Below, one piece after another: positions 6,993 to 55,598 of a DNA stretch of 64,000 bases (position 1 is its first letter; the number at the start of each line of letters is the position of its first letter). A program made the translations under genes and the position numbers. The stretch is from NCBI GenBank assembly GCA_000004985.1, contig GG738882.1; one strand, written 5' to 3'. Source of the stretch: Naegleria gruberi (Eukaryota). The notes below the pieces were generated by a model. It worked only from the letters and a program-made list of their open reading frames with translations, searched no databases and had not been told where the DNA came from.

Positions 6993-9029
6993 TTAATAGA
7001 CACGCTTGAATGGTGGAATATATCCCCACTCCTTTTCATCGAGAGTATAACTGTGGACTGGTCTATATTCAATATTGACCTTACCAGTATCAACATCCAT
7101 TGTGGTAAGAGTGTGCTTCATCCATGTAGCATCATCTCTGTCTGGGAAGTCGTCACGAGCGTGAGCACCTCTGGATTCCTTTCTGTTTTCAGCTGAAAGC
7201 ATAGTTTGTACAGCATTGATCAAAAGGTTTTGTAATTCGAGAATTTCATAAAGGTTAACATTGTAAATTGGTGACTTATCGCCCAACTTAAGGTATGGGA
7301 GCTTATCATAAGCTTCCTTAATGAGTTTACAACCAGTTTCCAAAGTTTCTTGCTTACGATAGACAGCAGCATAGTTTTGCATGACACTTTGCATTTCCTT
7401 TCTCAATTCGTGACATTTGATAGTTCCCTTATCACTATTGAAAAGCTTATCCAAACGAACAATTGATTGCATACCAGCATCAGATGGAAGAGGCTTATGC
7501 TTAGTATCCTTTGGCAAATTTTCCATGACGTACAAAGCACAAGCACGACCAAAGACGACAAGATCCAAAAGTGAGTTAGCACCCAAACGATTAGCACCGT
7601 GAACAGAAGCACAAGCAACTTCACCAGCAGCCAACAAACCCTTAACTGGATAATCTGGTTGATCTTCAGACTTCTTATAGACAACTTGACCAGTGTAAAG
7701 AGTTGGAACACCACCCATATTGTAGTGAACAGTTGGAACGACTGGAATTGGTTCCTTAGTCAAATCGACACCAGCGAAAATCTTGGCAGTTTCAGTAATA
7801 CCTGGTAATCTTTCGTGAAGTAAATCAGTTGGCAAGTGATCCAAGTGCAAGTGAATGTGATCCTTCTTTGGACCGCATCCTCTACCTTCCAAAATTTCCA
7901 TAGTCATAGCTCTACTGACAACGTCTCTTGAAGCCAAATCCTTGACACTAGGAGCATACTTTTCCATAAAACGTTCACCTTCACTATTTCTCAAGAAACC
8001 ACCTTCACCACGAGCGCCTTCTGTAATTAAACAACCAGCACCATAGATACCAGTAGGGTGGAATTGAACAAATTCCAAATCTTGATTTGGTAAACCAGCT
8101 CTAGAAACCATGGCAGTACCGTCACCAGTACAAGTGTGAGCAGAAGTACATGAACCATAAGCTCTACCATAACCTCCTGTAGCCAAAATAGTGTAGTGAG
8201 AACGGAAACGATGCATACTACTATCTTCAAGACAATAAGTCATAACACCTCTACATTCATCTCCTTCCATCAACAAGTCCAAAGCGAAATATTCAATAAA
8301 GAATTGGACGTCATATTTCAAAGCCATACCATAGTTTGTGTGGAGAAGAGCGTGACCTGTTCTATCAGCAGCAGCACAACATCTTCTAGCTTGACCACCT
8401 TTACCAAACTTGATACTTTGACCACCGAAAGCTCTTTGATAAATTTTACCTTCAGGAGTACGAGAGAAAGGAAGACCCATATGTTCCATTTCAATAACGG
8501 CTTGTGGAGCTTCTTTACACATGTAGTGAATAGCATCTTGATCACCCAACCAATCGCTACCCTTGACTGTATCATAGGCGTGATAAGTCCAGTGATCTTC
8601 TGTCATATTTCCAAGAGCAGCGTTAATACCACCTTGAGCAGCAACAGTGTGTGATCTTGTTGGGAACAACTTGGAAATACAGGCAACCTTGTATCCAGCT
8701 TTGGCCAAGTTGGCAGCACAAACGAGACCAGCACCACCAGCACCTACAACAACAGCATCATAAGTATGGTCAATTACTGGATAAACTTGTGAGAGTTGTG
8801 GTCCCTTATCGGTCATTGTTCCTTGTCTAACAGCACTATTTCCTAGCACAACCAAATTTTTGGTATTAGATGAAAAACATCTTTTAGTATTGGATGTTGT
8901 TGTGGATGTTTTAGTAGTAGAATTAATTAATGATGATGAAGATGAAAAAACAGAGTTGTTTTTTAATTGTTGTTGGATTGAAGACTTCAAAGCAGAGACT
9001 CCCTTCAACTTTCTGCAAGACTTGAGCAT
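6993..9029 (-). CDS. SDHA: Succinate dehydrogenase flavoprotein subunit, mitochondrial (with presequence)
   Basis: FAD-binding [13 protein letters not shown], covalent-FAD region [14 protein letters not shown], catalytic [21 protein letters not shown], and C-terminal ...[11 protein letters not shown]. The N-terminal region is S/T/K-rich and presequence-like. I chose the start at the ATG at 9029-9027 because of its aaaaaATG context. The ORF track extends to 9125 through a non-ATG start. Confidence 0.9.
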
Positions 9030-9875
9030 TTTTTGAGTCTGAATATTTTTTATCAAAATATTTTTAAAATTATTTTCTTGCCTGCTGCAGCCAAAAATCA
9101 TCCGAAGCCTAAAACTCCCCAGCAAAAGACAGATGTTCTGTATGAAATGGATTAGAGAAGGGACAATAACAATGATATTCAGCTTGAGTGTTTGACCGAC
9201 AACTCTAAGTTGTGTTGTCCCTTGCTAGCGATATGCTTTGTTGCGATTCTCTCTTTTGATGACTAATTCAAGCAGCTGGGCTTGAATTTACAATAACTCA
9301 AATTGAACATTAAAAAATACATCAATTCAGAGATGAATTGCATCAAGGAATGAATGTTAAGGAAATTAGAGTTGTTTGAATTAGCTTATTTTACACATTT
9401 TAAATCAATGTCCAAAATGGAAGAATAAGGCAATCAATTACGATGATTATCATAATTGGTTAAGGATAAGATCATCATTAGTATAAATATTGTCTATCAA
9501 TTCAATTCATGAAATTCAATTTCATAGCAGGCAACATGCTTTTGATTAAGGACCCACTTGCCGAACCGTTTGAATCAATCAATATTTCATTTTACCAGTT
9601 CATGAAAAGCAACTTTCTGCTCTCCGAATAGACTATGATATCAATCGACATTGGATGAATTGATGAACGTTTTGGTTTCGTAAAGACATCTTGGGTGATC
9701 ACTTTTGGAACCTTGTTACCATTCCAAATATGATGTCAAACAAAAGTTCTGTATTGTTATCTGCCACCATTGTATCTATCTTTCCAATCATGCCAGTTGA
9801 TACTTCTTTAAATACCACTGGTGATACAAGTCCAATGCATCCAACAATCAAAAAAAACAAAACACTGTGTTAACA

Positions 9876-10934: not shown

Positions 10935-12662
10935 TTAAATATTGATTTCAACAGTTCCATTTTCCAAGTCTGCCAATAAATTCTTCATTTGACTGTCAAT
11001 GGTTGAGAGAGCAAATTGGACATGTTCGAGATTTGTGAAGGAACCACAAATTGCCAATCTCAAACAATACTTTCCACCCAAAACAGTATGACTCATGTAC
11101 ATCATACCATTTACATTAATTCTTTCAATAAGAATCTCGTTGAAACGATTTTCCTTTTGGAGAGACCATTCTGAATTGTGATATCTGAAACAGATAAGAC
11201 TGGTAACTCTTGGAGCTAGGAATTCAATGCATGATTGCTTTCTCAATTCAGTTTCGGCATATTTTGTAAGATTAATGTGATGTCTGAGATACTTTTGAAG
11301 TCCACTAATACCATAAACTCTCATAACAAGCCACAATTTCAAAGATCTGAAACGTCTACCAAGAGGCAACTGCCAATCTCTGTAATCAGTAACAAGTCCA
11401 CTACTGGATGCCTTATTTTTCAAATATTCAGGATCTAAAGACAGAGCATTCTTCAAATGTTTTCTCTCCTTGACCCAAAATGCACAACAATCAAAGTTTG
11501 TCAACATCCACTTGTGAGGATTGAATGTGAAAGAATCAGCAAATTCCAAATATTCACAATTATCACCACCAACAAAAGCTTGTCTACATTCAGGTAGCAT
11601 GAGTGATGATCCAACGAATGCAGCATCAACATGAAGGAATAATGAAAACTTTTGACAAATTGCTCCAATCTTGGATAAATCATCAATGGCAGTGCTACTT
11701 GTTGTTCCAATGGTTCCACAAACAAAGAATGGAATTAAACCATTTTCCAAATCCTGTTGAATAGTTTTTTCCAATTCATTTTCATTCATATTATAAGTGT
11801 CTGGATAGGCAGATATTTTCCTCAAATGAATAATACCAGTGACCATGCATGCCTTCTCAATAGAGCTGTGAGTTTGACTTGAAACGTAGGCCACTAACTT
11901 TCCTTGAAAATCAGCTTGATTGAATGAATCACCCATTTCATTCTTCATTTGGACACGTTTCTTTTCTTTAGCTGCTAACATTGCAACTACACCAGCTGAT
12001 GAAGCTGTATCTTGAATGGATCCTCCCTTTTCAGAAAGTGGTTGTTGAGATTTCAAATTTTGTAAAATAACTTACACCTGTTGTTTCACTTAAAAAGTGT
12101 TTTGGTAAATGGAGAGCTTTGGCCAACCAGTCCATAACAATAGTTTCCAATTCTGTGCATGCAGGTGAAGTAATCCAACTAAAACCAATGACATTGAACA
12201 TTCCTGACAAGATGTCACCAATGAGAGCAGGATATGAAAAATTGGCAGAAAAGAACTATCATTTTCAATTATTCTAATACATGTATTCCAAAAACCTACA
12301 GAATAGAAATTAGGATGTTGCCAATGAGTTACTCCCATAGTAATCTTCTCAGAAACATCTTTCAAAATATCATCAAATGATTCTCCATTAAGAGGTGCTT
12401 CATTTGGTAATAATTTTTGCAAATAACCTGGTTGTACTTGAGAACAGACTGGGTGATGAATTTTGTTTTCTTCTAAAGTATTGTTTGGATTAATTAATTG
12501 ATCATGATAATTAACAATATAATCACCAACTGTATTTAGGTGATTTTTGAAATCGGAGGCAGACCATGGATGTTGAAAATTGAGTTCTTCAAGTGTAAAT
12601 TCCGATGATGAATTGTTATTCTCTTGTGATGGGAGTGGCTGTTGATTGTTTGATGGAAGCAT
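10935..12662 (-). CDS. DDC: Aromatic-L-amino-acid (DOPA/Tyr/His-type, group II PLP) decarboxylase; exons 12662..12300, 12255..12076, 12026..10935
   Basis: Motifs HWQHPNF, SPACTELE...MDWLAKALHLP, LVAYVSSQTHSSIEKA and FNPHKWMLTNFDCCAFWVK. ORF 12090..12662 leaves the homology at a GTAGGT at 12299-12294. Introns 12256..12299 (44 nt) and 12027..12075 (49 nt, GTAAGT...GAAAAG) restore the conserved order. About 544 aa. Confidence 0.8.
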
Positions 12663-12758: not shown

Positions 12759-15700
12759 TTATTTCTTAGTATCACCAGAATAGAGGGAGATGATAGAATC
12801 GGTTGATCCAGCTGCTAAACACATTCTGAAAGGATGGAATGCAAGACATGAAATTGGACCAATTCTTTGACCTAAAAATCCGTCATGATAATAAATCATG
12901 CTTAATGTTTCACCTGATGTGTTGAAAACTTTGATGAATTGGTTATTGCTACCACAAGCCAATACAGGAGCATAATTATGGATGGCTAATGCTGTCATCG
13001 ATCCCTTATGAGCGTTGAATTGTCTTGTGCATTTGTTAGTAACTCTAGTATCCCAGAACATGATATCACCACTAGAATAACCAGTGATAACTTGATTGCT
13101 ATTGACATTTTGAATCTTGGCACTTACTACCCAATTCTTACTGACTTCTTCATAATTTGAAATAAGTTGGTGAGTAAGTACTGGTCCACTATTTGGTGAT
13201 TCTCTCTTGTCGAATAAGAGAACTTTACCATCACTACAACCAGCAGCAAAGAGATATCCATTATTTGGATCAGCCGCAATACTCGTAACTGGAACATCCA
13301 GAGGAATATTTTGAACACAATATTCCTTATCGACATCCCAAATCTTGACTTTTTCAATATCACCAGTGACATAAAGTGTACCATTGTGTTGTTGCCATTC
13401 TGTTAAAATTCCCAGACCTGAATCACTGCTGAGGGCTTCATGAGCAGCTCGGAAAGAAGATACTGGCTCTTCTTTCTTTTCATAATTCTTATAGATTGCA
13501 ACATTACCAGCTGCTGATGCAACCAACAACATGGATTGCTCTGCCTCTTCGTTAATGATATGGAAATCTGTAATTCTACTCTTGAGAATGTCACCACATC
13601 TAAATTGATTCACAATAGCACCTCTAACCCAATTCCAAACACTTAAACCATCATTCTCATCAGAAACTACTAAATATGGTTCAAATCCATGGAATTTCAT
13701 TTGAGAACAAATTTCACTTTCATTTCCAAAGAAACCAATTTGTTCTTCCAACTTCTTTTTACCAGCAACCTTGAGCATTGTATTGGCTTCCTTAACCAAA
13801 TGCTCGTTTCTCTTTCTTCTCTTAAGAACTTGTTGGGATACAAAGCTGTCATCCTTTGGTGAATTCTCGGTAAGAATTGGATTTGAAAAATATTCACAAC
13901 TTCTTTCATAAAAGTTTGATTTCATGAATATCATATTACTGTTAGAAGAAGAGGTGACATCCAAGCTGTCAGAGTCAGTATCTTCATCAGAATAATTGCT
14001 TTGTTGATTAACAAATCCGGCTTTCAAAAAGTCAGAATCACTAGCGCTTCTTCTCATTGATAATTTGTCAATCAATCTCTTTTGCATTGGCTTGGCTGGA
14101 CTCTTTGGAGTATTTTGAGTATTATTGAATGCCTTTTCTTTGATGAGGAAGAGTTCTCTTTCGAAATCTTCATCGTTCAATTTTGAGTAAGTATACCTCA
14201 TAAAGCTCAGAATCTTGTGGGCTTCTTCGGCAACTTCGCGAACAGGATCAAAACACAACATAATAGCCACTCTACAAACGTCAAGAGCAAAATATGAAAG
14301 TTGACCAAGCTCTCTATCCTTCATATCTTTGAGAACTCGGGCATCCTTTGGAGTGGAAGGTTGAGTGGTAACTTCATCAACAGGTTTTCTTTCCTTCTTT
14401 TTCTTCTTCTTTTGTTGGAATATTAAAGTATTAGGTGATGATGAGTTTGAACCAGAAACCAAAATTGGTGTTGGGGCATTGTTGAGGTAGTGAGTTTCTT
14501 CCTTAATTATGGATTTCAAAAGTTCTGGTGCAATAAATTCGCCATATTGTTGAATAAATGTACCAAGAGCATAAACTAGCTCCTTTCTAACCATTGGAGA
14601 ACCATCCAAAATTGTTTGATAAAGAGCAGTGCAAATCTTGATTTCTCCTTGTACTCTTTCTTCGGATTTTTCTGGCTTATTTCCAACAAACTTTTGAAGA
14701 GTGAAAATACTTGCTGCTCTAACTTCTGGTACATCATCATTTAAAAGTCTTAAAACTTTTTCATGAGTAGTAGATTTGATAGCCAATTCTTGACCTTCAT
14801 CAAAATCTTCAACGAGCTTTGCAATCAAGAGACATGCCCACTTTCTAAGAATTGGATCTTGTTCAGTCAATTGAGAGGAGCAAAGATCAAACAAGTTCTT
14901 ATATTTGAGACATGCTTGTTGGCCAGGATTAAATCTATCTGCAATAACTGATAAAACAAAGCAAGACATTGCTCTCAATTCAGTATCATTATTTCTTTCA
15001 ACTAGTACATTGATGAAATAGCTATGACCATGATCCTTTACAAGATCAATTTGGCATGGTTTGTCGAGTGCCAAAATTTTAGTCCAAATAAATACTAAAA
15101 TTCTTCGAAGTTCTACAGAGTTACTTTGGAGAAGTTTGAGAACGTATGGGAAAATACCAACAGAGAGAGCCAAGTTTACAGCCCAGCTTCCCATATCCAA
15201 AAATCTTCCCAATAATGTGAGAGCTCTCAAACGATGGCTTTGACTGAGTAAAACTTGAAGTAAGATTGGGAGTTGTGTTGGTGGTTTTTGAATTCTATGA
15301 CCAAATTCCAACCAAACTTGGAAATCTGTAAGTTGTGCAGAGAAGAATGGGTTATATTGATATTCAGCACTTGGATTGTTAAATAAGTTAGGAAGTTGTG
15401 ATACACATTGGTCAAGAGCCAAATCCCATGCATCCCACATTGGATGGTTGTGTGTTTCAGGTAATTTAGGATAGCTTACTGGTGTACAATTAGCTGATCT
15501 CATAATTCTATCAGCCAACAAGAAATTTCTAAACAAACTAGCAACAAGAAGATCTTGTCTGAAAAGTTTGTGGAATAAATCTCTTGGTAAAACATTCCAA
15601 GCAATAGTATCAGTAACTGCAGTAAAGATCCAATTCAATTCACCAAGAGGTGTTCTTCTGTCATTGATTCTACCTGGAATATTTTCTATCAAGTCATCAG

Positions 15701-16838
15701 TAACTCCAGAAACGAGCTTATTACGTTGTCTAAACCATCTCAATGCAATTTTGATAGGTGTAGTAAGACATGATGTGAATAAATCAGCTGGGTATTCAGG
15801 ATTCATTGGTAAATTTTCTTTAACTCCACAAGCTGCTAAAATAATATTTTCCTTCTTCATGACACTTCCTCTTGGAGGAGCATCTTTTTGTTCAATAATT
15901 TGAATAAAACTATTCAAAATTATTCCGGCATTAGAGCAATCAAAAACATAAATTGAAGGAGAATCCATCCAACAATACAGATCATAAAGTGACAATGGAA
16001 TATACTGAGTAAAGGTCTTATTGAAAACCCAAATTTCACCATTTGTTGTTGGTTTTGGAACACCGTGACCATTGTAATGGAACAGTATTCTCTCCTTTTT
16101 AGCACTTTTTCTTAACTGTACACAAGTTTTTTTAACATCTTCAACAGTAGGATCAAGACATTGCTTATATCTTGCTCTTGGTTGCCAACGTTCATATTGT
16201 AATTTCAAATTACTACCAATAGCTTCCAAAGCCTTTTGTGGATGAGTTTGAGGATCAACCCAACACTCCAACTTTGCACAAGGTTGAACCTTGACAACAT
16301 CTGGAGGATCAACTCCAATATTCAAACAAACAACAAGTGCAACGTGAACAGTTTTTAACTAAATTCAAAATTATTAAATATGAAATTGGTATATATTTCT
16401 ACTACTTACTCTTTGTTTCATTCTCCAATCTATAACTTCTCTAGGTACTGGAGTAAAAACTTGATGTCTATCACTTGTGAAAAAGAGAGGCTTGTTTGGA
16501 AGGTTAGTAGATTTTCTTCTTCTAGATTTTGTCAATCTAAACGAAGCTAAACCATCAGAACTTTGACCAAATGGTGGAGAAATAGATGTGTTTGATGAAG
16601 GAGAAACATTGTTCATACTCGGAGTTGAAAGACCTTGATTATTTTGAGAGTAACCATCATCATAATAATCCCCTCCTAGAGTTGATCTTCCTGATTGAGC
16701 ATATTTTGGCTCATTTTCAAAGTTTTCTTCATCATCATTTTGTTGTTGATTGTTTGGTTCATCATTATCGATATCATCATTATCGTCATCTTGATTTGTT
16801 CTCCTTCTGGAGTTTTCTTCATAATCGTTTGGAATCAT
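12759..16838 (-). CDS. RPTOR: Regulatory-associated protein of TOR (Raptor); exon 1 16838..16410, intron 16359..16409 (51 nt), exon 2 16358..12759
   Basis: Exon 2 begins LKTVHVALVVCLNIGVDPPDVVKVQPCAKLECWVDP..., which is the Raptor RNC/caspase-like domain. It continues with HEAT repeats and C-terminal WD40 repeats. The ORF 16374..16838 ends in ...NKPLFFTSDRH...IDWRMKQR|GTAAGT, which matches the Raptor N-terminus (LPLAFMKKRH...[28 protein letters not shown]). About 1342 aa. Confidence 0.85.
16359..16409 (-). other. Spliceosomal intron (51 nt) in Raptor, GTAAGT...TTTAATAATTTTGAATTTAG
   Basis: The intron joins ...WRMKQR to LKTVHVALVVCLNIGVDPPDV, reproducing the conserved Raptor N-terminus. Confidence 0.8.
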
Positions 16839-17401: not shown

Positions 17402-18664
17402 TTATTTGAAGAATAAAATTCCATAATCTAGGATCTGCATTTTGTACAAGTCTTTGTAGCTTTGTTGATGTGGAGCTAAAGAAGGATTATAGCCTGTTTG
17501 TCTGTTACTAGCTTTCAGGTTTTGAAGATGACAATATTTAACACCCTCCTTTCCATCAGGATGTTCACCTCCAAACAGTAATCTGTAATGTACATTTTGA
17601 GACCAGGTAGCAAACTTTAACTCGTCACGGTAAAGTTGAACTAGTTCAGTGGCCAGTCTATCATCGTTGAAATTTCTATTGGCACCTTGGTAAAATGTGG
17701 TATTTCTCTTTTGGTGGTATTTTTGTCTGGATGTCTTACTGAAAATATCATAAACACAGGCAAGAGTTAGCACTTGCTTACTGTTTGTGAGCTTGATTAA
17801 TAATTCTACAGAACGTTCCCAATTTTTTCTGTCATATGCATTGTGAGGCTTGTAGTACTGAGATAGACTGTTAACTACTATACACTTGTATGAATTCAAT
17901 TGTTCCAAGTTTTGAAAATTATCCTTTAGGGATTCTCTTTCAGCTGATAAATCTTCATTTTCCATTAATTGCTTTTCTCTCATCATGTTACTCTCGTTGT
18001 GTCTCCTGTGTAGTGCTTCAAAGGCAAGGGCAAGTTGAAAGGAATTGTCAACTCTAAAAATATGAATTCTGCTCAATACTTCCAACACAAATGAATTATA
18101 ACTAATTTCTGATGCATCAAAGATTTCTTCCACAATCATTTCCTCTGATATCGAACTAAAATCAATCATCTCTCCAGATTTTCGTTTCATATCATAGAAG
18201 GCCTTATAAATATTCATTTCTACAATTTCTATAAATCTTGGTTTTTCAAATTTATCATCCAAATCAAAATACAGAACTTGACATCCTTCTCTTGGTTTAG
18301 TCTTTTCATCCCCAGAGAATTGTAGAGTTTTAAAATGTGAAGGCATAGCAATATGACACATGGCAGTATAACAAGTTTGTGTAATACCCTGCCCTTCATT
18401 TCCATACAATTCAACAATAGTTCCTCCCAATTTCATCTCTCCGATCACTTGATCAAACGGTTCAACACCTGTCTGCAGTGCATCAGTTCTTTTTCTCTTG
18501 AAAAAACTTAAAGCATTCTCCGAATAAACCTTATTATCAAGAAATAGAGAATTTGTTTCCTTTGATGTACTCGTTCCGACAATACTATTAATTTGTGAGT
18601 CACATTCCATCTCCGATGAGGAGAAGCCAAACAAGAGACTTTGAAACTCTGGTGCTAGCTGCAT
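17402..18664 (-). CDS. RecA/Rad51-fold paralog-like protein (XRCC2/Rad51-paralog-like) with degenerate Walker A
   Basis: GGTIVELYGNEGQGITQTCYTAMC parallels the Rad51-paralog Walker A region ([22 protein letters not shown]), but the GKT is replaced by GIT. The rest is a hydrophobic core consistent with a RecA fold. Start context aaaaaaATG. Confidence 0.4.
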   Translation of the reverse strand: MQLAPEFQSLLFGFSSSEMECDSQINSIVGTSTSKETNSLFLDNKVYSENALSFFKRKRTDALQTGVEPFDQVIGEMKLGGTIVELYGNEGQGITQTCYTAMCHIAMPSHFKTLQFSGDEKTKPREGCQVLYFDLDDKFEKPRFIEIVEMNIYKAFYDMKRKSGEMIDFSSISEEMIVEEIFDASEISYNSFVLEVLSRIHIFRVDNSFQLALAFEALHRRHNESNMMREKQLMENEDLSAERESLKDNFQNLEQLNSYKCIVVNSLSQYYKPHNAYDRKNWERSVELLIKLTNSKQVLTLACVYDIFSKTSRQKYHQKRNTTFYQGANRNFNDDRLATELVQLYRDELKFATWSQNVHYRLLFGGEHPDGKEGVKYCHLQNLKASNRQTGYNPSLAPHQQSYKDLYKMQILDYGILFFK

Positions 18665-30063: not shown

Positions 30064-32805
30064 ATGAATACAGCTGCAGGAAGTGTCGTATTGGATAATA
30101 ATTCCATCACAGGAGGAATACCTGCAGGAAGTAATTATGAAAATGCTTCATCTCATCATGGAGGAGCATTAACAACAACAACAGATGAACCAGTACTAAA
30201 TGAAACTCATCATCACACCAATAACAATCATCGGAAGAGTCAGAGTTTTGGAGGAACACCAATTACAATAGTGCCACCAACCATTCTGACTAAACCTAGC
30301 AATAAGAGGGATATTACAACAACTCCTGTTGATGGTCAGGAATTAGACGAATTAGACGATGATAATACTGTTTCAGGTGTTGCACCTGGTGCAGACACTA
30401 GCAAACATGCCTATTGTACTCCTAGAAGAGCTATTGTGAATTGTCAAAACTTGGAAGTAATTTCAGAAAAACTAAAGAATCGTAAATTGAGAATTTGTGT
30501 ATATATTAAGGAAAGAGTTTATAAGAGAAGAAAGACATTGAAATCCTCAATTATAGATGTACCAACTTTGAAGAATCAGGCAAATATAGCTGCCGATCAA
30601 TCACTACAAGTGCCACTGAATAACATTTCCTTCAAACTGAAATATTCACATCACTTTAAAAAGAAGATTGACATTTTGAGAATTTCTCTACAATCAGCCA
30701 AGAAAAAGGGTGATTCTTTTAAAACTATTTCAATAGTTTCTATTAATTTATTACACGTTTTGCAGAGACCTTTTGATGAAACTGTTTCCTTCCTCATCAA
30801 AAAGAAAAAGAAGAAGCAAGGAAAAGAGGAAGGAGGTGAAAACAGTCCCAATCAAAATAATTTAAACAATACCCCAAATCATACACTCTTCAATACTAAT
30901 AGTGCCATTTTACATTACTTGTCAAGTGACGATGAAGATGAAGAAAAAGAAAGATATCACAACCACCAAACACATCAAACTTCTCAAAATCTAGATCCTG
31001 TTGCTAATCTAAAGGTTTCTATTCAAACTTTGCCAATATCATTGACAGAGGAAAGAAAAAAGAAAAAGAAATTCCCATTCTTGGGAAAGAAGGAAAGCAC
31101 AAATCCAAATGGTATTGTGCCAGTTATGGAATCGTATGAATATGATTTTACAGATGATGATGATGAAACAGATGATGATAGTGATATTGAGTATGAGTAT
31201 GCAACTGGTTTACAACCAGGCACTGATATTCCAGCATCACCAATTAATAATCCAATTTCTTCTCCAATGGCCGATAAATCAAGTATACTGAAAGAGGATA
31301 AAACTCTAAAAGCAGTGATTGGAATCAAAGACAATATTATGAAAAAGTGGAAATCATTCAAAAAGAAAGGACATCATAATGACTCTGATCATGAACCAAC
31401 ATCACCCAGAGGTGCAGCTGCAAGCTCTGAAAACCCAACACAAATTACCATCAAAATTGATAGAATTCCAATACAAGAACAACTCAAGGAGCTTTTATCC
31501 AACAAGACAATTGTAAAGAAAATTATATTAATTAATGGCAGTTTTAGAAGAGGACAAAGGATTTGGAGCTTTTTGAAACGAACTGGTGGATTATATTCAA
31601 AAGATATTTTATGTACATATTCATGTGAAGATGTAGCTTTGGCTATTAACAAGATATTTGAAAGCAATGCAGAGAGAAGGTATGTCAGTGACCAAGAAAA
31701 TAATGAAACAAAAATTGTTATTCTTGGTAACGATGCCTATGTAAATGATGTTTTAAGAGCATGTCTTACATTGACAACAGATGAAAAGGTTTGGAATCAA
31801 ATTCTCTTCTACCTGGTTCCAATACCTTCTAAGAAAGGAGAGGAGGTTCTCCACCGATCAAGGAATGAAGTTTCTAATTACCTGTATGCTAAATGCACCA
31901 AATATGCCCAACTTTTCTCAACAGATGACTGGAGAAGAGCTCTCTGCTATTCAGTTGATGTAGAGGATTATGTAGAACATGTTTTATTTGAGTATTTGGA
32001 GAATGCTAGTCGTTTTGTTACGATAGAAATTTCACAAGTAATTTTAATGAGCGATTTGTCGACCCCAAACGCCTATCTTTATCCTCACACCAGTCGAGTA
32101 ATTGATTCAGAGACAGCACCATCTTCTCCATCTGAATTGATTCTCAACCAACAGTGTATTGTACCATTACTAAATAATATTCACATCATGAATGAACACC
32201 ATGAACAAAAAAAGAAGAATATTCTCCTAAAACTAGTTCAAAATCTCAATAAGGAAGATGAAAAGGATCCAAAAGAAAAATCCCACAAGAAGGAGATTAT
32301 TGATAAGTCCAACAATCCACCTTCAGCTGCTCAAGTTTTATCTACAAGTCCCCAAATTTCTAATTTACAAAAGAGATTGAGTGTGGAAAATGATGAAGAT
32401 TCATCAGATGAAGGAGAGGATGGTAAACTTGAAAAAGTTCCATCTCTGGAAGTTAAAATTGACTATTGGGATGCTAGTCTCGAAGATAAAAGCAAATGCA
32501 CAACCAAACATTCCTTCTCTCACGTCGAAATATTCAAGTTGCCATCCACAGACCTTCCTGATGAATTCCAACCAAAACCAGAAACCTTTACTCTTTCCAC
32601 CAGCAAACCTAAAAAGAAAAAGAAACAACCAAACGAGGAAATTGAAAGAAAATGCAATCTTACCAAAGTAATTTGTAAAGTAGAAAAAAAGAAGCAAACA
32701 GCAAGAGCAGTCATTGATGGTGTAGAATGGTCGAATGTTAAGGTTATTTCAGTAACTCCCAAATGGGTTAACAATTTGAGTTTCAAAGTAGCATCCTTCA
32801 AATAA
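30064..32805 (+). CDS. PACS: Phosphofurin acidic cluster sorting protein (PACS)-like
   Basis: Conserved C-terminal blocks: ILINGSFRRGQRIWSFLK (PACS ILVNTSDWQGQFLSDVLQ), KIVILGNDAYVNDVLRACLTLTTDEKVWNQILFYLVPIPS ([42 protein letters not shown]), and AVIDGVEWSNVKV (VLIDGVECSDVKF). Acidic cluster DDDDETDDDSDIEYEY. 913 aa, uninterrupted. Confidence 0.65.
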   Translation: MNTAAGSVVLDNNSITGGIPAGSNYENASSHHGGALTTTTDEPVLNETHHHTNNNHRKSQSFGGTPITIVPPTILTKPSNKRDITTTPVDGQELDELDDDNTVSGVAPGADTSKHAYCTPRRAIVNCQNLEVISEKLKNRKLRICVYIKERVYKRRKTLKSSIIDVPTLKNQANIAADQSLQVPLNNISFKLKYSHHFKKKIDILRISLQSAKKKGDSFKTISIVSINLLHVLQRPFDETVSFLIKKKKKKQGKEEGGENSPNQNNLNNTPNHTLFNTNSAILHYLSSDDEDEEKERYHNHQTHQTSQNLDPVANLKVSIQTLPISLTEERKKKKKFPFLGKKESTNPNGIVPVMESYEYDFTDDDDETDDDSDIEYEYATGLQPGTDIPASPINNPISSPMADKSSILKEDKTLKAVIGIKDNIMKKWKSFKKKGHHNDSDHEPTSPRGAAASSENPTQITIKIDRIPIQEQLKELLSNKTIVKKIILINGSFRRGQRIWSFLKRTGGLYSKDILCTYSCEDVALAINKIFESNAERRYVSDQENNETKIVILGNDAYVNDVLRACLTLTTDEKVWNQILFYLVPIPSKKGEEVLHRSRNEVSNYLYAKCTKYAQLFSTDDWRRALCYSVDVEDYVEHVLFEYLENASRFVTIEISQVILMSDLSTPNAYLYPHTSRVIDSETAPSSPSELILNQQCIVPLLNNIHIMNEHHEQKKKNILLKLVQNLNKEDEKDPKEKSHKKEIIDKSNNPPSAAQVLSTSPQISNLQKRLSVENDEDSSDEGEDGKLEKVPSLEVKIDYWDASLEDKSKCTTKHSFSHVEIFKLPSTDLPDEFQPKPETFTLSTSKPKKKKKQPNEEIERKCNLTKVICKVEKKKQTARAVIDGVEWSNVKVISVTPKWVNNLSFKVASFK

Positions 32806-44611: not shown

Positions 44612-46801
44612 ATGTCCTTCACCGCTTACTTTAGCTATCAGGCAAATTTACGGCCAGCCTGGAAGACCTACTACATTTCATACCCAGAACTTAAGAATGC
44701 ACTCCATCACATTAGAGAGGAACTCACACAAATGAAACAAGAACAAAAGGAGCATCGGAAACGAAGATTGCAACAACAACAAGAAGAGGAGAGGAAAACC
44801 TCAGAAAATTCTGCCCTATTGTCCTATCAGCAACAGGCTGTAACAAGTGGAGATAGTAATAATAATAATAATACAACAATAGTATCATCGTCATCATCAT
44901 CACTGTTGCCTGCTAATAGCAGTGGTGCATTGAATCCAATTGAAAACTTTGGATTATCACTGCGGAGAGTCTATTCAGAACAAGATTCATCAATTCAGGA
45001 GAATGATGGAGAGAAAATAGGAGGAACCATTGTTGATGATTACTTTTTCAGATTGGAAATTGGAGAAAGTTTGAATATGCATATTGAAAATTTCAAAAAC
45101 ATGTTTAAAAAGGACGTAGAGACTGTTTTTAAAAAGTACAATTTTGAATTGAAGAAAGTCAATGAAATAACATTGAGAACACAAAAGGAATTGTCAGAAG
45201 CAAGAATGAAACCATTTTTCAATAGTGAAACTGGTCCAGTACTGAAAGAGAAATTTGTTGAAATTTACAGAGAGTTGGAATTTCTCTACAGCTTTTTGCA
45301 TGCCAACAGAATTGCTAGTAATAATTTATTGACTAAATTTGAATTTTGTGGTGAACATTCAAGAGATTTAAAACATTGGTATGAAGATTTACCAAATGCT
45401 GACTTTAGCACCAATCAATTGAAACAAAGTATGGAAAATGTCGAACAGATATTTGCCAAATATTTCACATCCTCAGATCAGAGTAGAGCCTTGTCATTCC
45501 TTCGTGAACCTTCCACTCACCACACCCACGGTGACACTTTCAAATTGGCTCTGGCTATTGGTTCCATTGTGCCATTGTTTGTCCTTCTGGTTGCTGTGTG
45601 GTTCTTTAAGGAGCCATCAATTAATGATATTCCAGGTTTCTTTGATGTACTTCCAATTTTCCGTTCTATCATGTTATACATTCTCTATGGTTGGCTCTAT
45701 GGATTGAATTTGTTTGTTTGGGAAAGATACAAGGTCAACTTTGCCTATCTTTTTGAATTTGATCCAGTGAATCACTTGAAAGCTATCAAAATTTGGAAGA
45801 CAACTAGTGTTTTGACAGTTTTTTGGTTCTTTTTCTTTTTCCTTTACATGATAACAGTGAAAGGTTATTTAACAATATTAGATGCTTCATGGTATCCATT
45901 AATTATGAGCTTGATGATGGTCTTTATTGCCATTTTACCAATGCACTTTGTTCACTTGAGTGCAAGATATACTCTCCTTAAGGTCTTGGGTAAATTGTTG
46001 ATCACACCATTTGGTCACATTAGATTCAGAGAATTCTTTGTTGCTGATGTTTTAACAAGTATGGTTATTCCAATAACTGATACAGCTTACATGTTGTGCT
46101 TTTATTTCTCTTGGAGTAGTGGTGAAAATCAATGTCATGAATTTAACAAATTCTTGGGTCCTTGCCTTACTTTCCTTCCTTTCTTGTGGAGAATGTTACA
46201 GTGTTGCAGAAGATTTTACGATGACAGATCACAAAAGAGTCAGCTTCTCAATGCTCTCAAATACGTTGCTGCTCTCTCTGTGATTTTATTCAACACCTTG
46301 CACGTCAATTTGGAAGATAACGATGCTTGGGGACCTTTCAGATATATTTGGATTATTCTGACACCAGTCAGTACTGCCTATGCTTTCACTTGGGATATTC
46401 TGATGGATTGGGGCTTATTCAAATTCAAACAAGTTAAGGAAGAGGAAAGAGCCAAGACGAAATTGGAAGCAATTAAGAAATTTTTCACCTCACAAACAAT
46501 TATGGGCTACAAATTTGTAATGCGTAGCAGAAGAATTTATGGTAGAAGAAAACTTGTCTATCGTTTGGCAATTGCTTTCAATTTGATTGCTAGATTTGCA
46601 TGGGCTGGTACCATCTCAACTTACTTTAAGCAAAATAAGGAATTTTTAGCCATTCTCTTTGGTAGTGTCGAGTTGATGAGAAGATGTAGTTGGAGTGTCT
46701 TTAGATTGGAATGGGCAGCAATCTCTAATGATGAGGGCTGGCGTAAACATGGAATTGGAGACTTGGCATCTATCTATCTTGGTATTAACACTTCAAAATA
46801 A
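44612..46801 (+). CDS. XPR1: SPX-EXS domain phosphate exporter (XPR1/PHO1/SYG1 family)
   Basis: N-terminal SPX (MSFTAYFSYQANLRPAWKTYYISYPELKNALHHI...), about 8 TM helices, and a C-terminal EXS domain (WDILMDWGL..., RFAWAGTIS..., FRLEWAAISND). Confidence 0.8.
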   Translation: MSFTAYFSYQANLRPAWKTYYISYPELKNALHHIREELTQMKQEQKEHRKRRLQQQQEEERKTSENSALLSYQQQAVTSGDSNNNNNTTIVSSSSSSLLPANSSGALNPIENFGLSLRRVYSEQDSSIQENDGEKIGGTIVDDYFFRLEIGESLNMHIENFKNMFKKDVETVFKKYNFELKKVNEITLRTQKELSEARMKPFFNSETGPVLKEKFVEIYRELEFLYSFLHANRIASNNLLTKFEFCGEHSRDLKHWYEDLPNADFSTNQLKQSMENVEQIFAKYFTSSDQSRALSFLREPSTHHTHGDTFKLALAIGSIVPLFVLLVAVWFFKEPSINDIPGFFDVLPIFRSIMLYILYGWLYGLNLFVWERYKVNFAYLFEFDPVNHLKAIKIWKTTSVLTVFWFFFFFLYMITVKGYLTILDASWYPLIMSLMMVFIAILPMHFVHLSARYTLLKVLGKLLITPFGHIRFREFFVADVLTSMVIPITDTAYMLCFYFSWSSGENQCHEFNKFLGPCLTFLPFLWRMLQCCRRFYDDRSQKSQLLNALKYVAALSVILFNTLHVNLEDNDAWGPFRYIWIILTPVSTAYAFTWDILMDWGLFKFKQVKEEERAKTKLEAIKKFFTSQTIMGYKFVMRSRRIYGRRKLVYRLAIAFNLIARFAWAGTISTYFKQNKEFLAILFGSVELMRRCSWSVFRLEWAAISNDEGWRKHGIGDLASIYLGINTSK

Positions 46802-52798: not shown

Positions 52799-55598
52799 AT
52801 GGGAAATAATATTAAATCAGCCAGTAATGATCGGGAGGCCCCTACTAGGAGTTTATATGAAGAAGAGGTATCCCCATCAGCTTCATCATCAACAAATTAT
52901 CAAGACGATTTGCAGAGTTACAAGTCATATATTACACAACATCAAATTATTGATCAAATACAATTTCGATCACTTCCCGATAAGTTTTGTAGTGTGAGAA
53001 TTTTGATAATGCAAAGTGGAATGAATGGCAATACACTCATGTACGATACTCATCATGATAATAACTTTAAACAATTTAAAGCCAAATTAAATCAAAATAC
53101 AAAGGAGGTTAATGAAAGATTTAGAAAAATGCAAATGTTGAAGAGTACAAGAGCTGTCAACAAGATTAAGACCAGCTCACCATCTTTGAAACCACTATTG
53201 GGAGGTTTATCTCAAAATAATTTGAATCAATCCTTCCAATCACAAACAAATAATACTTCGAGTAATAATAATATTAATAACAAACAATCAGTGGGAATGA
53301 ACGATACTAGTATTCTAGGTGAAATATTATTTGGATCTATTCCAATACAGATACTTGGACAAAATACTAAAATTCACACTCTTTCACAGCACAAACAAAC
53401 CTGTCTCAGTAAGGTGTTCAGAGTTGGTTTGCCAGTCAGTACAATAATTAAGACAGACGTACAGAGTGATCATGGAGATGACTCTAGCTCAACATCAAAG
53501 GATATTCCACCAAATACAGAACCAAATCCAAACCCCGTTAGCACATCACCAACACCATCACCAACTGTGAGAAATAGAGCTGTCAGTATAATTCAACAAC
53601 CAAATGCAAACCAAGTATCAGCAACTGCTTATAGTCCAAACACCTTGGGTACTCGTAATAGAAGCTATTCCACATCTGTTACAGATGCCATTAGAGATAA
53701 TTTCACTGAAAAAGCAGCTGCTGCCTCTACTACCACTGAAGATACAAAGCAAGCTCACAAGAAGAAAGACAGAAAAAAGAAGCTACACAAAGATCAGGAT
53801 ATTTCATTCATGTGCAAATCTTCATTTGGAATAGCTGTCTTATTGGTTTTCCATGACTGTGGAGAAGATAAGGATGAGCTTCAAAATCCAAGTCAGTTGC
53901 AAAGACTCATATTCTCTCACTTCCCAATATTTGAACACAAACTGAGAAAATTGCTCAACTCTTGTAAAAACTCAATTCAAAACTACCTGAAGAAGAAAGT
54001 TGATGAAGCTCGAGAATCAGACAAGCTAGACGAAATTTTCAGTGGTTTTACTTTCAATATCAAATCATTCCATGGATGTCTTCAAGATTCTGAAGAAATT
54101 TCTAATGCATCCATAGATTTCAACAAGTTTATTATCTCTTTCCTACATGCGCCTCGTTTCAATGTAAGTGTCTGATATGTATTTATTTTCTCACTTATCT
54201 TTTTAGGAACCAATTTGGCAATCACAATCACTTTTGCCTCTTGAAAAATCTAACAATTTCTCTACCTTTTTAACTGATCTTGCCTTGCTAACGAGGAAAG
54301 ACGAACAACATCTTTCATTCTTTTCTCTAGTGTTGACTACCATTTTATCAAACCACCTTTCATGGGTTTCACAATTCATACAATCTGAAAGGAGTGACTG
54401 TGATGATAATCCTTCACTACTCATTCAGAAATATCTAAAATCTCTGTATGGAAGTGGCTACCTTCCAACATTGACATCTGGTGAACAAGACAAGAAAGGT
54501 CTGAAAAAGTTTTGTAAAATAATTGTTGTTGGAAGTAATAACAAAGATATTAGATATTGTATATCCATGATTACGTTCCTCCTTCAATCAACTCTACTTT
54601 TAGAAAAAGAATTTTCCATTGACAAGCCTCAACAATCCTCCAATCTCGATTCTAAATTCCTTCCAGAAACTCTTTTAACCCTAACTCCAATGCAATTTGT
54701 TGAAATGAAACCTCCACTTAAAACTAAGCCACGACAAAAACACTCCCACGACACAACGAATCCAAATATAGCTATTCATACAATAGAGAGTGATTCAGAT
54801 GAAGATTCTGAATATCATATCAAACCTGTAGTTTTAGTTCCAAAACCTAATTTCACACTTGCAGCTTATGACAATAACGTTGAGGAAATGAATTTGAAAA
54901 TGAAATTCAACAAGTTTGGAAATTCACTTTTTGCTGACGTTTGTACGTGGTATTGTGGTGGATTCGTAATATCTGGCTTGCCTAGGTATGTCAATTTCCA
55001 AAAGGAGCTCATAGAAGACTTGGAATTCATTCAAACAGAAAGCATTGATGGAGATCCAAGATTACCAGATGTAGCCAGTTGCATTATAATTGATATTGAA
55101 GGAAGGTCTTGCAATGTTGTAACGAGTAAGCACAAGACAGCTAAATTCGAAGAAGGTCATAACTCTAGCATAATCTCCAAGTTATTGCACGAACTTTTAT
55201 TCCTTAGATCAGTAGATCAGACATCAGAAGGTGAAAAAGCATGTGAGCAGATATTTAAAGATACACTTTATGGACTAGTTCTAAAGACCAAGCTTATGTT
55301 TTCAATTGTGGACTCGATAGATTCGGAAACGAATAGAATTATACCAACAAACGCCGTTCATTGGCGCTCTGATTCCAAACAAACACCAACAAAGAGTTTA
55401 TCAGAACAACTCAAAAAGATACTTGTATCCAAACCTAAGAAGAATGGATCTGAGAGAATCACCTACGAGCAATTGTCTCATCTATTACATGTTAATATTT
55501 CAGACATACCCTTACTCATGTCCATTGCCAGTGCTTTCCGTAGTGATATTTCAAAGAAGGTCATTCCACATAAAGTGTCAAAAAAGAAAAAACGATAA
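52799..55598 (+). CDS. FNIP: Folliculin-interacting protein (FNIP/Lst4-like); exons 52799..54163 and 54207..55598, intron 54164..54206 (43 nt, GTAAGT...TTTTTAG)
   Basis: VRILIMQSGMNG and DTSILGEILFGSIPIQILGQNTKIHTLSQHKQTCLSKVF match the FNIP N-terminal block ([22 protein letters not shown]...SKVF). The phase-0 splice APRFN|EPIWQSQ joins the two ORFs. About 919 aa. Confidence 0.6.

Follow-up and report, generated by a model that had tools for sequence, protein, structure and literature searches.

Within a 64,000-nucleotide (nt) stretch of Naegleria gruberi contig GG738882.1 (assembly GCA_000004985.1; hereafter the window, numbered from its first letter), we identify the minus-strand interval 12759..16838 as almost certainly a single two-exon gene for Raptor/Kog1, NAEGRDRAFT_80526, in which removal of a 51-nt phase-0 intron joins residue R143 to L144 and yields a product of 1342 amino acids (aa). 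Raptor would serve N. gruberi as the substrate-recruiting scaffold subunit of TOR complex 1 (TORC1), presenting substrates to the TOR kinase, and the predicted product is laid out as a disordered-looking tail of ~96 aa, a conserved pre-domain segment of 47 aa, the Raptor_N domain, HEAT repeats and a WD40 propeller. Scanned for open reading frames (ORFs), the same interval offers a separate "acidic protein" of 154 codons (16838..16374), which would be exon 1 read on into the intron; the appearance of a separate protein arises because a spliced eukaryotic gene has been read as plain ORFs. A sequence-only reading of the window had proposed that this ORF is the first exon of a Raptor of about 1342 aa with a 51-nt intron, a proposal that matches the public gene model exactly, and on recomputation its junction (16410/16358) and all its other coordinates and sequences proved correct.

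Gene structure and identity of the product

The 154-aa ORF starts with MIPNDYEENS and continues to ...NKPLFFTSDRHQVFTPVPREVIDWRMKQR, whereupon VSSRNIYQFHI and a stop follow. Its DWRMKQR stretch is succeeded directly by GTAAGT, and past the intron the frame resumes as LKTVHVALVVCLNIGVDPPDV, leading into the long ORF that ends at 12759. At the DNA level the junction reads AAA CAA AGA / GTAAGTAGT...GAATTTAG / TTA AAA ACT GTT CAC GTT (slashes mark the exon borders), and the intron in fuller form is GTAAGT...TTTTGAATTTAG, with a pyrimidine-rich tract before the AG. The sequence features of a canonical U2-type intron are present, namely GT...AG, an extended GTAAGT donor, a pyrimidine tract and a frame restored on removal, and the G+C content of the intron is 17.6%, compared to 34-36% in the exons. 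Recomputed from the sequence, the spliced coding sequence of 4029 nt translates into 1342 aa with its sole stop at the end, whereas with the intron retained the frame would end after 11 codons. Two codons 5' of the ATG, the frame contains a TAA. Joining R143 to L144 recreates DWRMKQRLKT, a string that is contiguous both in Raptor of Acrasis kona and in a heterolobosean-like JGI sequence of 1402 aa, the latter probably intron-free because it fills nearly all of its 4279-nt contig. Since these two sequences carry the string unbroken and the alignment to human RPTOR runs through it ungapped, the pairing of GT and AG at this intron is more than coincidence. An exact search of JGI metagenome contigs with the 41-nt spliced junction returned no matches and is uninformative, as N. 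gruberi mRNA is unlikely to occur in such data.

Table 1. Positions of the Raptor and FNIP features in the window, and of the Raptor intron in three other species (positions headed L001, L002 or L003 lie on sequences of those species)
Feature	Position	Strand	Details
Raptor exon 1	16838..16410	-	429 nt, phase 0, residues 1-143, ATG at 16838
Raptor intron	16409..16359	-	51 nt, phase 0, GTAAGT...TTTAG
Raptor exon 2	16358..12759	-	residues 144-1342, one unbroken frame, stop at 12759..12761
Low-complexity part of exon 1	16551..16838	-	residues 1-96, acidic and Asn/Gln/Ser-rich
Conserved tail of exon 1	16410..16550	-	residues 97-143, LASFRLTKSRRRKS...FFTSDRH...DWRMKQR
Raptor_N caspase-like domain	15906..16355	-	residues 145-294; Pfam PF14538, 240.9 bits (cut-off 27), E 5.8e-72, profile 2-151 of 151
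HEAT-repeat region	14499..14879	-	residues ~637-763; Pfam HEAT PF02985 at 678-701, E 1.3e-9, 37.8 bits (cut-off 23.5)
C-terminal WD40 beta-propeller	12768..13406	-	residues ~1128-1340; Pfam WD40 PF00400, E 3.5e-14, 53 bits (cut-off 27)
N. lovaniensis Raptor intron	L001 3487..3675		189 nt, phase 0
Nematostella vectensis Raptor intron	L002 663..736		74 nt, phase 0, WRMKER/MKTVSV
Acanthamoeba castellanii Raptor intron	L003 772..872		101 nt, phase 0, WRMKQR/MKTVSV
FNIP	52799..54175 and 54234..55598	+	Pfam FNIP_N (E 2e-23), FNIP_M, FNIP_C (E 1e-20)
FNIP intron	54164..54206	+	43 nt, GTAAGT...TTTTTAG; joined product 918 aa

The spliced product has the full architecture of Raptor, with a pre-domain segment, the caspase-like Raptor_N domain, HEAT repeats and a C-terminal WD40 propeller (Table 1), and human RPTOR (PDB 5h64, 6bcu, 6u62 and others) has the same domain order of pre-domain segment, Raptor_N, HEAT/ARM and WD40. 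HEAT_2 and Cnd1 also match the HEAT region more weakly, under their curated cut-offs, and several further beta-propeller families of Pfam match residues 1128-1340. Exon 1 taken as an ORF of its own is without any Pfam match because the Raptor_N profile begins one residue past the splice junction. The sequence-only reading had suggested an alignment with RPTOR orthologues as a check, and human RPTOR proved collinear across the junction with no gap: a phmmer search of PDB that took the N-terminal 469 aa as its query matched residues 115-468 to human RPTOR 25-396 (E 4e-161) and left WRMKQR/LKTVHV ungapped. The full-length product scores 1085 bits against human RPTOR, with residues 115-779 continuous with human 25-702, armadillo region included, and a second matched stretch besides; the linker between HEAT and WD40 is divergent between the two proteins. 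All PDB matches are Raptor or Kog1, comprising human RPTOR, Arabidopsis RAPTOR1 (5wbi), Chaetomium thermophilum Kog1 (6zpn) and S. cerevisiae Kog1 (7pqh), the last three each with E < 1e-100 over the N-terminal 469 residues. Among the best 120 database matches, every informatively named protein is Raptor, and Raptor_N occurs in all but one N-terminally truncated fragment; animal Raptors show ~41-46% identity where ~90% of the N. gruberi query is covered. This homologue set was gathered with the full-length query, as a query of the N-terminal 302 aa returned short proteins only and not even its own full-length entry.

An exact look-up of the 1342-aa product found it in the public record as EFC42042.1, XP_002674786.1 and UniProt D2VMD1 (D2VMD1_NAEGR), under the locus NAEGRDRAFT_80526 and the name "predicted protein". 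All 1342 residues are identical, which implies the same start, 51-nt intron and stop, and a descriptive name is absent from the record. The two-exon model has been public since the 2010 genome paper, so the splice was already known. N. gruberi is also covered by two surveys of the TOR pathway (van Dam et al. 2011, PMC3236823; Tatebe & Shiozaki 2017, PMC5745459).

Conservation across the junction and competing explanations

The closest comparison is offered by the Naegleria lovaniensis orthologue C9374_002172 (P0125), a protein of 1363 aa that is collinear with the N. gruberi product at 82% identity and 100% coverage. Its gene range exceeds the coding sequence by exactly 189 nt, equal to one intron of the form GTAAGT...CAG. 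This intron lies in phase 0 immediately behind the Arg codon that ends WRMKQR, as in N. gruberi, contains a stop in frame, and cannot be aligned with the 51-nt intron of N. gruberi. The start is conserved between the two species (MIPNDYEEN in N. gruberi, MITNDYDEN in N. lovaniensis), and N. lovaniensis exon 1 is longer by 19 codons owing to indels in the low-complexity part. Within exon 1, 91 of 139 aligned codons specify the same residue, and 48 of these 91 do so with a different codon, which indicates selection on the protein; in exon 2, 1037 of 1196 residues are identical, 459 of them with different codons. The pattern of conservation in exon 1 is that of a translated exon. Beyond Naegleria, the last 29 residues of exon 1 (115-143) align to human RPTOR from its residue 25 onward (NLPLAFMKKRH...WRMKDR, human 25-54), a segment that directly precedes the caspase-like domain in the human protein, and R124, W138, R139, M140, K141 and R143 are invariant in an alignment of seven species.

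The intron itself is also found outside the genus. N. gruberi, N. lovaniensis, Nematostella vectensis and Acanthamoeba castellanii all carry a Raptor intron at the same position and in the same phase, between WRMKxR and (L/M)KTV (Table 1). Being common to animals and amoebozoans, the position is probably ancestral in eukaryotes. Such a finding is unsurprising, since N. gruberi shares 30-50% of its intron positions with other eukaryotic supergroups (Csuros et al. 2011, PMC3174169).

Among explanations that depart from a constitutively spliced Raptor gene, the one that survives best, though still very unlikely, is that the intron is sometimes retained, so that a truncated 154-aa peptide or a target of nonsense-mediated decay arises as a regulated by-product. 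Its one point of support is the early in-frame stop in both Naegleria species, which would render retained transcripts non-productive; the read-through tail, however, is not conserved (VSSRNIYQFHI and a stop in N. gruberi, VSGVLNSV..., open for 26 codons before the first stop, in N. lovaniensis), and the GTAAGT donor and polypyrimidine-AG end provide the intron with strong consensus signals. Less probable again, and effectively refuted, is a pair of genes consisting of a free-standing 154-aa acidic protein (16838..16374) and a shorter Raptor begun at an ATG inside the long ORF. Both ORFs are indeed listed as separate open frames, and exon 1 alone lacks a Pfam match, but conservation against human RPTOR is continuous across donor and acceptor, N. 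lovaniensis is split at the same codon, and neither stand-alone protein is in the public collection: the 154-aa ORF, the mechanical ORF of 1188 aa and the 1069-aa product from the first ATG of exon 2 were all absent among ~15 billion proteins. A start at an in-frame ATG 3' of the intron, which the sequence-only reading had named as an observation that would overturn it, was likewise rejected, as no ATG occurs within the intron and exon 2 has its first Met at exon residue 131 (protein residue 274), from which translation would forfeit 129 of the 150 residues of Raptor_N. It is hardly credible that exon 1 resembles Raptor only by chance or through its low complexity, with the real first exon at another place: two thirds of exon 1 are of low complexity, but the segment aligned to human 25-54 holds the six columns invariant across seven taxa, N. 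lovaniensis retains the start Met and several patches amid many synonymous differences, and a stop in frame lies just upstream of the ATG.

Splicing in vivo is strongly indicated by comparative and homology evidence rather than read from RNA, the exon coordinates of the public model follow from exact identity of the protein and not from the record itself, and a role in TORC1 would be attributed to the product through homology.

The N-terminal extension

Ahead of the conserved segment, residues 1-96 comprise 22% Asp and Glu, 24% Asn and Gln, and 32% Ser, Thr, Gly and Pro, with a net charge of -16, and acidic residues reach 38% and Asn/Gln 31% within the first 45 positions; residues 97-143, in turn, form a conserved, basic stretch with a net charge of +9. 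Naegleria proteins commonly contain Asn/Gln/Asp-rich tracts. Among the sequences compared, the low-complexity part can be aligned, in patches, with N. lovaniensis only, whose N-terminal tail is likewise acidic and Asn/Gln-rich and shares the patches DYxEN..RRR, GGDYYDD and NNVSPSS..SPP, whereas Acrasis and the remaining homologues in the comparison lack it and have short N-termini. The extensions of Arabidopsis, Chaetomium and S. cerevisiae Raptor/Kog1 vary in length and are not alignable with that of Naegleria.

The sequence-only reading had called this extension "unusually long", and while the extension is real, its length is not out of the ordinary. We took the N-terminal 469 aa as query in an exhaustive search and surveyed the 150 best representatives, dropping matches that start past query residue 150 and those that start at residues 1-4 of the hit, which left 110 representative Raptors. 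In these, the residues before the LKTV-equivalent number 80 at the median (interquartile range 54-116), compared to 143 in N. gruberi, and 16% have at least 143. Human RPTOR has 24 residues before its NLPLAF motif where Naegleria has 114, and for the same stretch Chaetomium Kog1 (6zpn) has 221 and Arabidopsis ~78, although these two counts follow PDB chain numbering and may include construct residues.

Within the conserved tail lies a short basic motif, LASFRLTKSRRRKS (16506..16526, residues 105-111, SRRRKST), which does not differ between N. gruberi and N. lovaniensis; Acrasis-like sequences hold a weaker basic SFK...RKQ stretch, and human RPTOR is without a counterpart. Its SRRRKS core fits the R-R-x-S consensus of basophilic kinases. 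It is conceivable that the ~96-residue tail and SRRRKS together form a Naegleria-specific regulatory module of TORC1, for example a phospho-regulated or localisation element, instead of reflecting neutral low-complexity drift, but we regard this as improbable.

Neighbouring genes and significance

A second gene of the TORC1 axis lies in the window. The sequence-only reading had placed FNIP 36 kb from Raptor, and this stands: the gene encodes a real homologue of folliculin-interacting protein, and the distance from ATG to ATG is 35,961 nt. Its true FNIP_N, FNIP_M and FNIP_C domains rule out the unrelated FNIP-repeat family as its identity, and its intron resembles that of Raptor in style, with a GTAAGT donor and a T-rich end in AG (Table 1). 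Some 12 large ORFs separate the two genes, and the annotated ones, a 3-beta-HSD-like dehydrogenase, a DEAD-box helicase, PACS-1, a metallo-beta-lactamase/beta-CASP protein and an SPX-EXS protein, include none related to TORC1. By a rough estimate, the chance of finding a gene of the TORC1 axis within 50 kb of a given gene amounts to several per cent (a few dozen genes in ~41 Mb), so that, in a gene-dense genome, the 36-kb proximity of Raptor and FNIP is best regarded as incidental. A protein search with the N-terminal exon of FNIP matched just two short environmental contigs, with no protein of N. lovaniensis among them.

Local gene order around Raptor is not conserved, since the flanking genes differ between the two Naegleria species. 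In N. lovaniensis they encode a 1449-aa protein with an FKBP_C domain and an AMP-binding enzyme (L001 1..2519 and 7771..9810), whereas in N. gruberi they encode a 420-aa protein without a Pfam match and a decarboxylase. Two ORFs neighbouring N. gruberi Raptor are likewise N. gruberi proteins of the same 381,539-bp contig. The upstream neighbour, NAEGRDRAFT_70092, occupies 17402..18664 (-). Directly downstream, at 10935..12662 (-), lies a pyridoxal-dependent decarboxylase of the aromatic-amino-acid type in at least two ORFs, one holding positions 1-44 and the other 102-374 of the Pyridoxal_deC profile, so that it must hold one or more short introns around 12057..12300. Elsewhere in the window we noted a flavoprotein of the succinate dehydrogenase/fumarate reductase type at 6993..9125 (-), the PACS-1 homologue at 30064..32805 (+), and the SPX-EXS protein, which is PHO1/XPR1-like, at 44612..46801 (+).

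The finding is correct but ordinary, in that the gene structure is already annotated, and its significance beyond annotation tidying is small. It shows how an ORF-only reading of this eukaryotic window splits Raptor in two, where the model held in GenBank, RefSeq and UniProt is already correct; the entry now called "predicted protein" could be renamed Raptor/Kog1. For N. gruberi itself, the Raptor intron adds a further example to the intron positions that this organism shares with other eukaryotes (PMC3174169).

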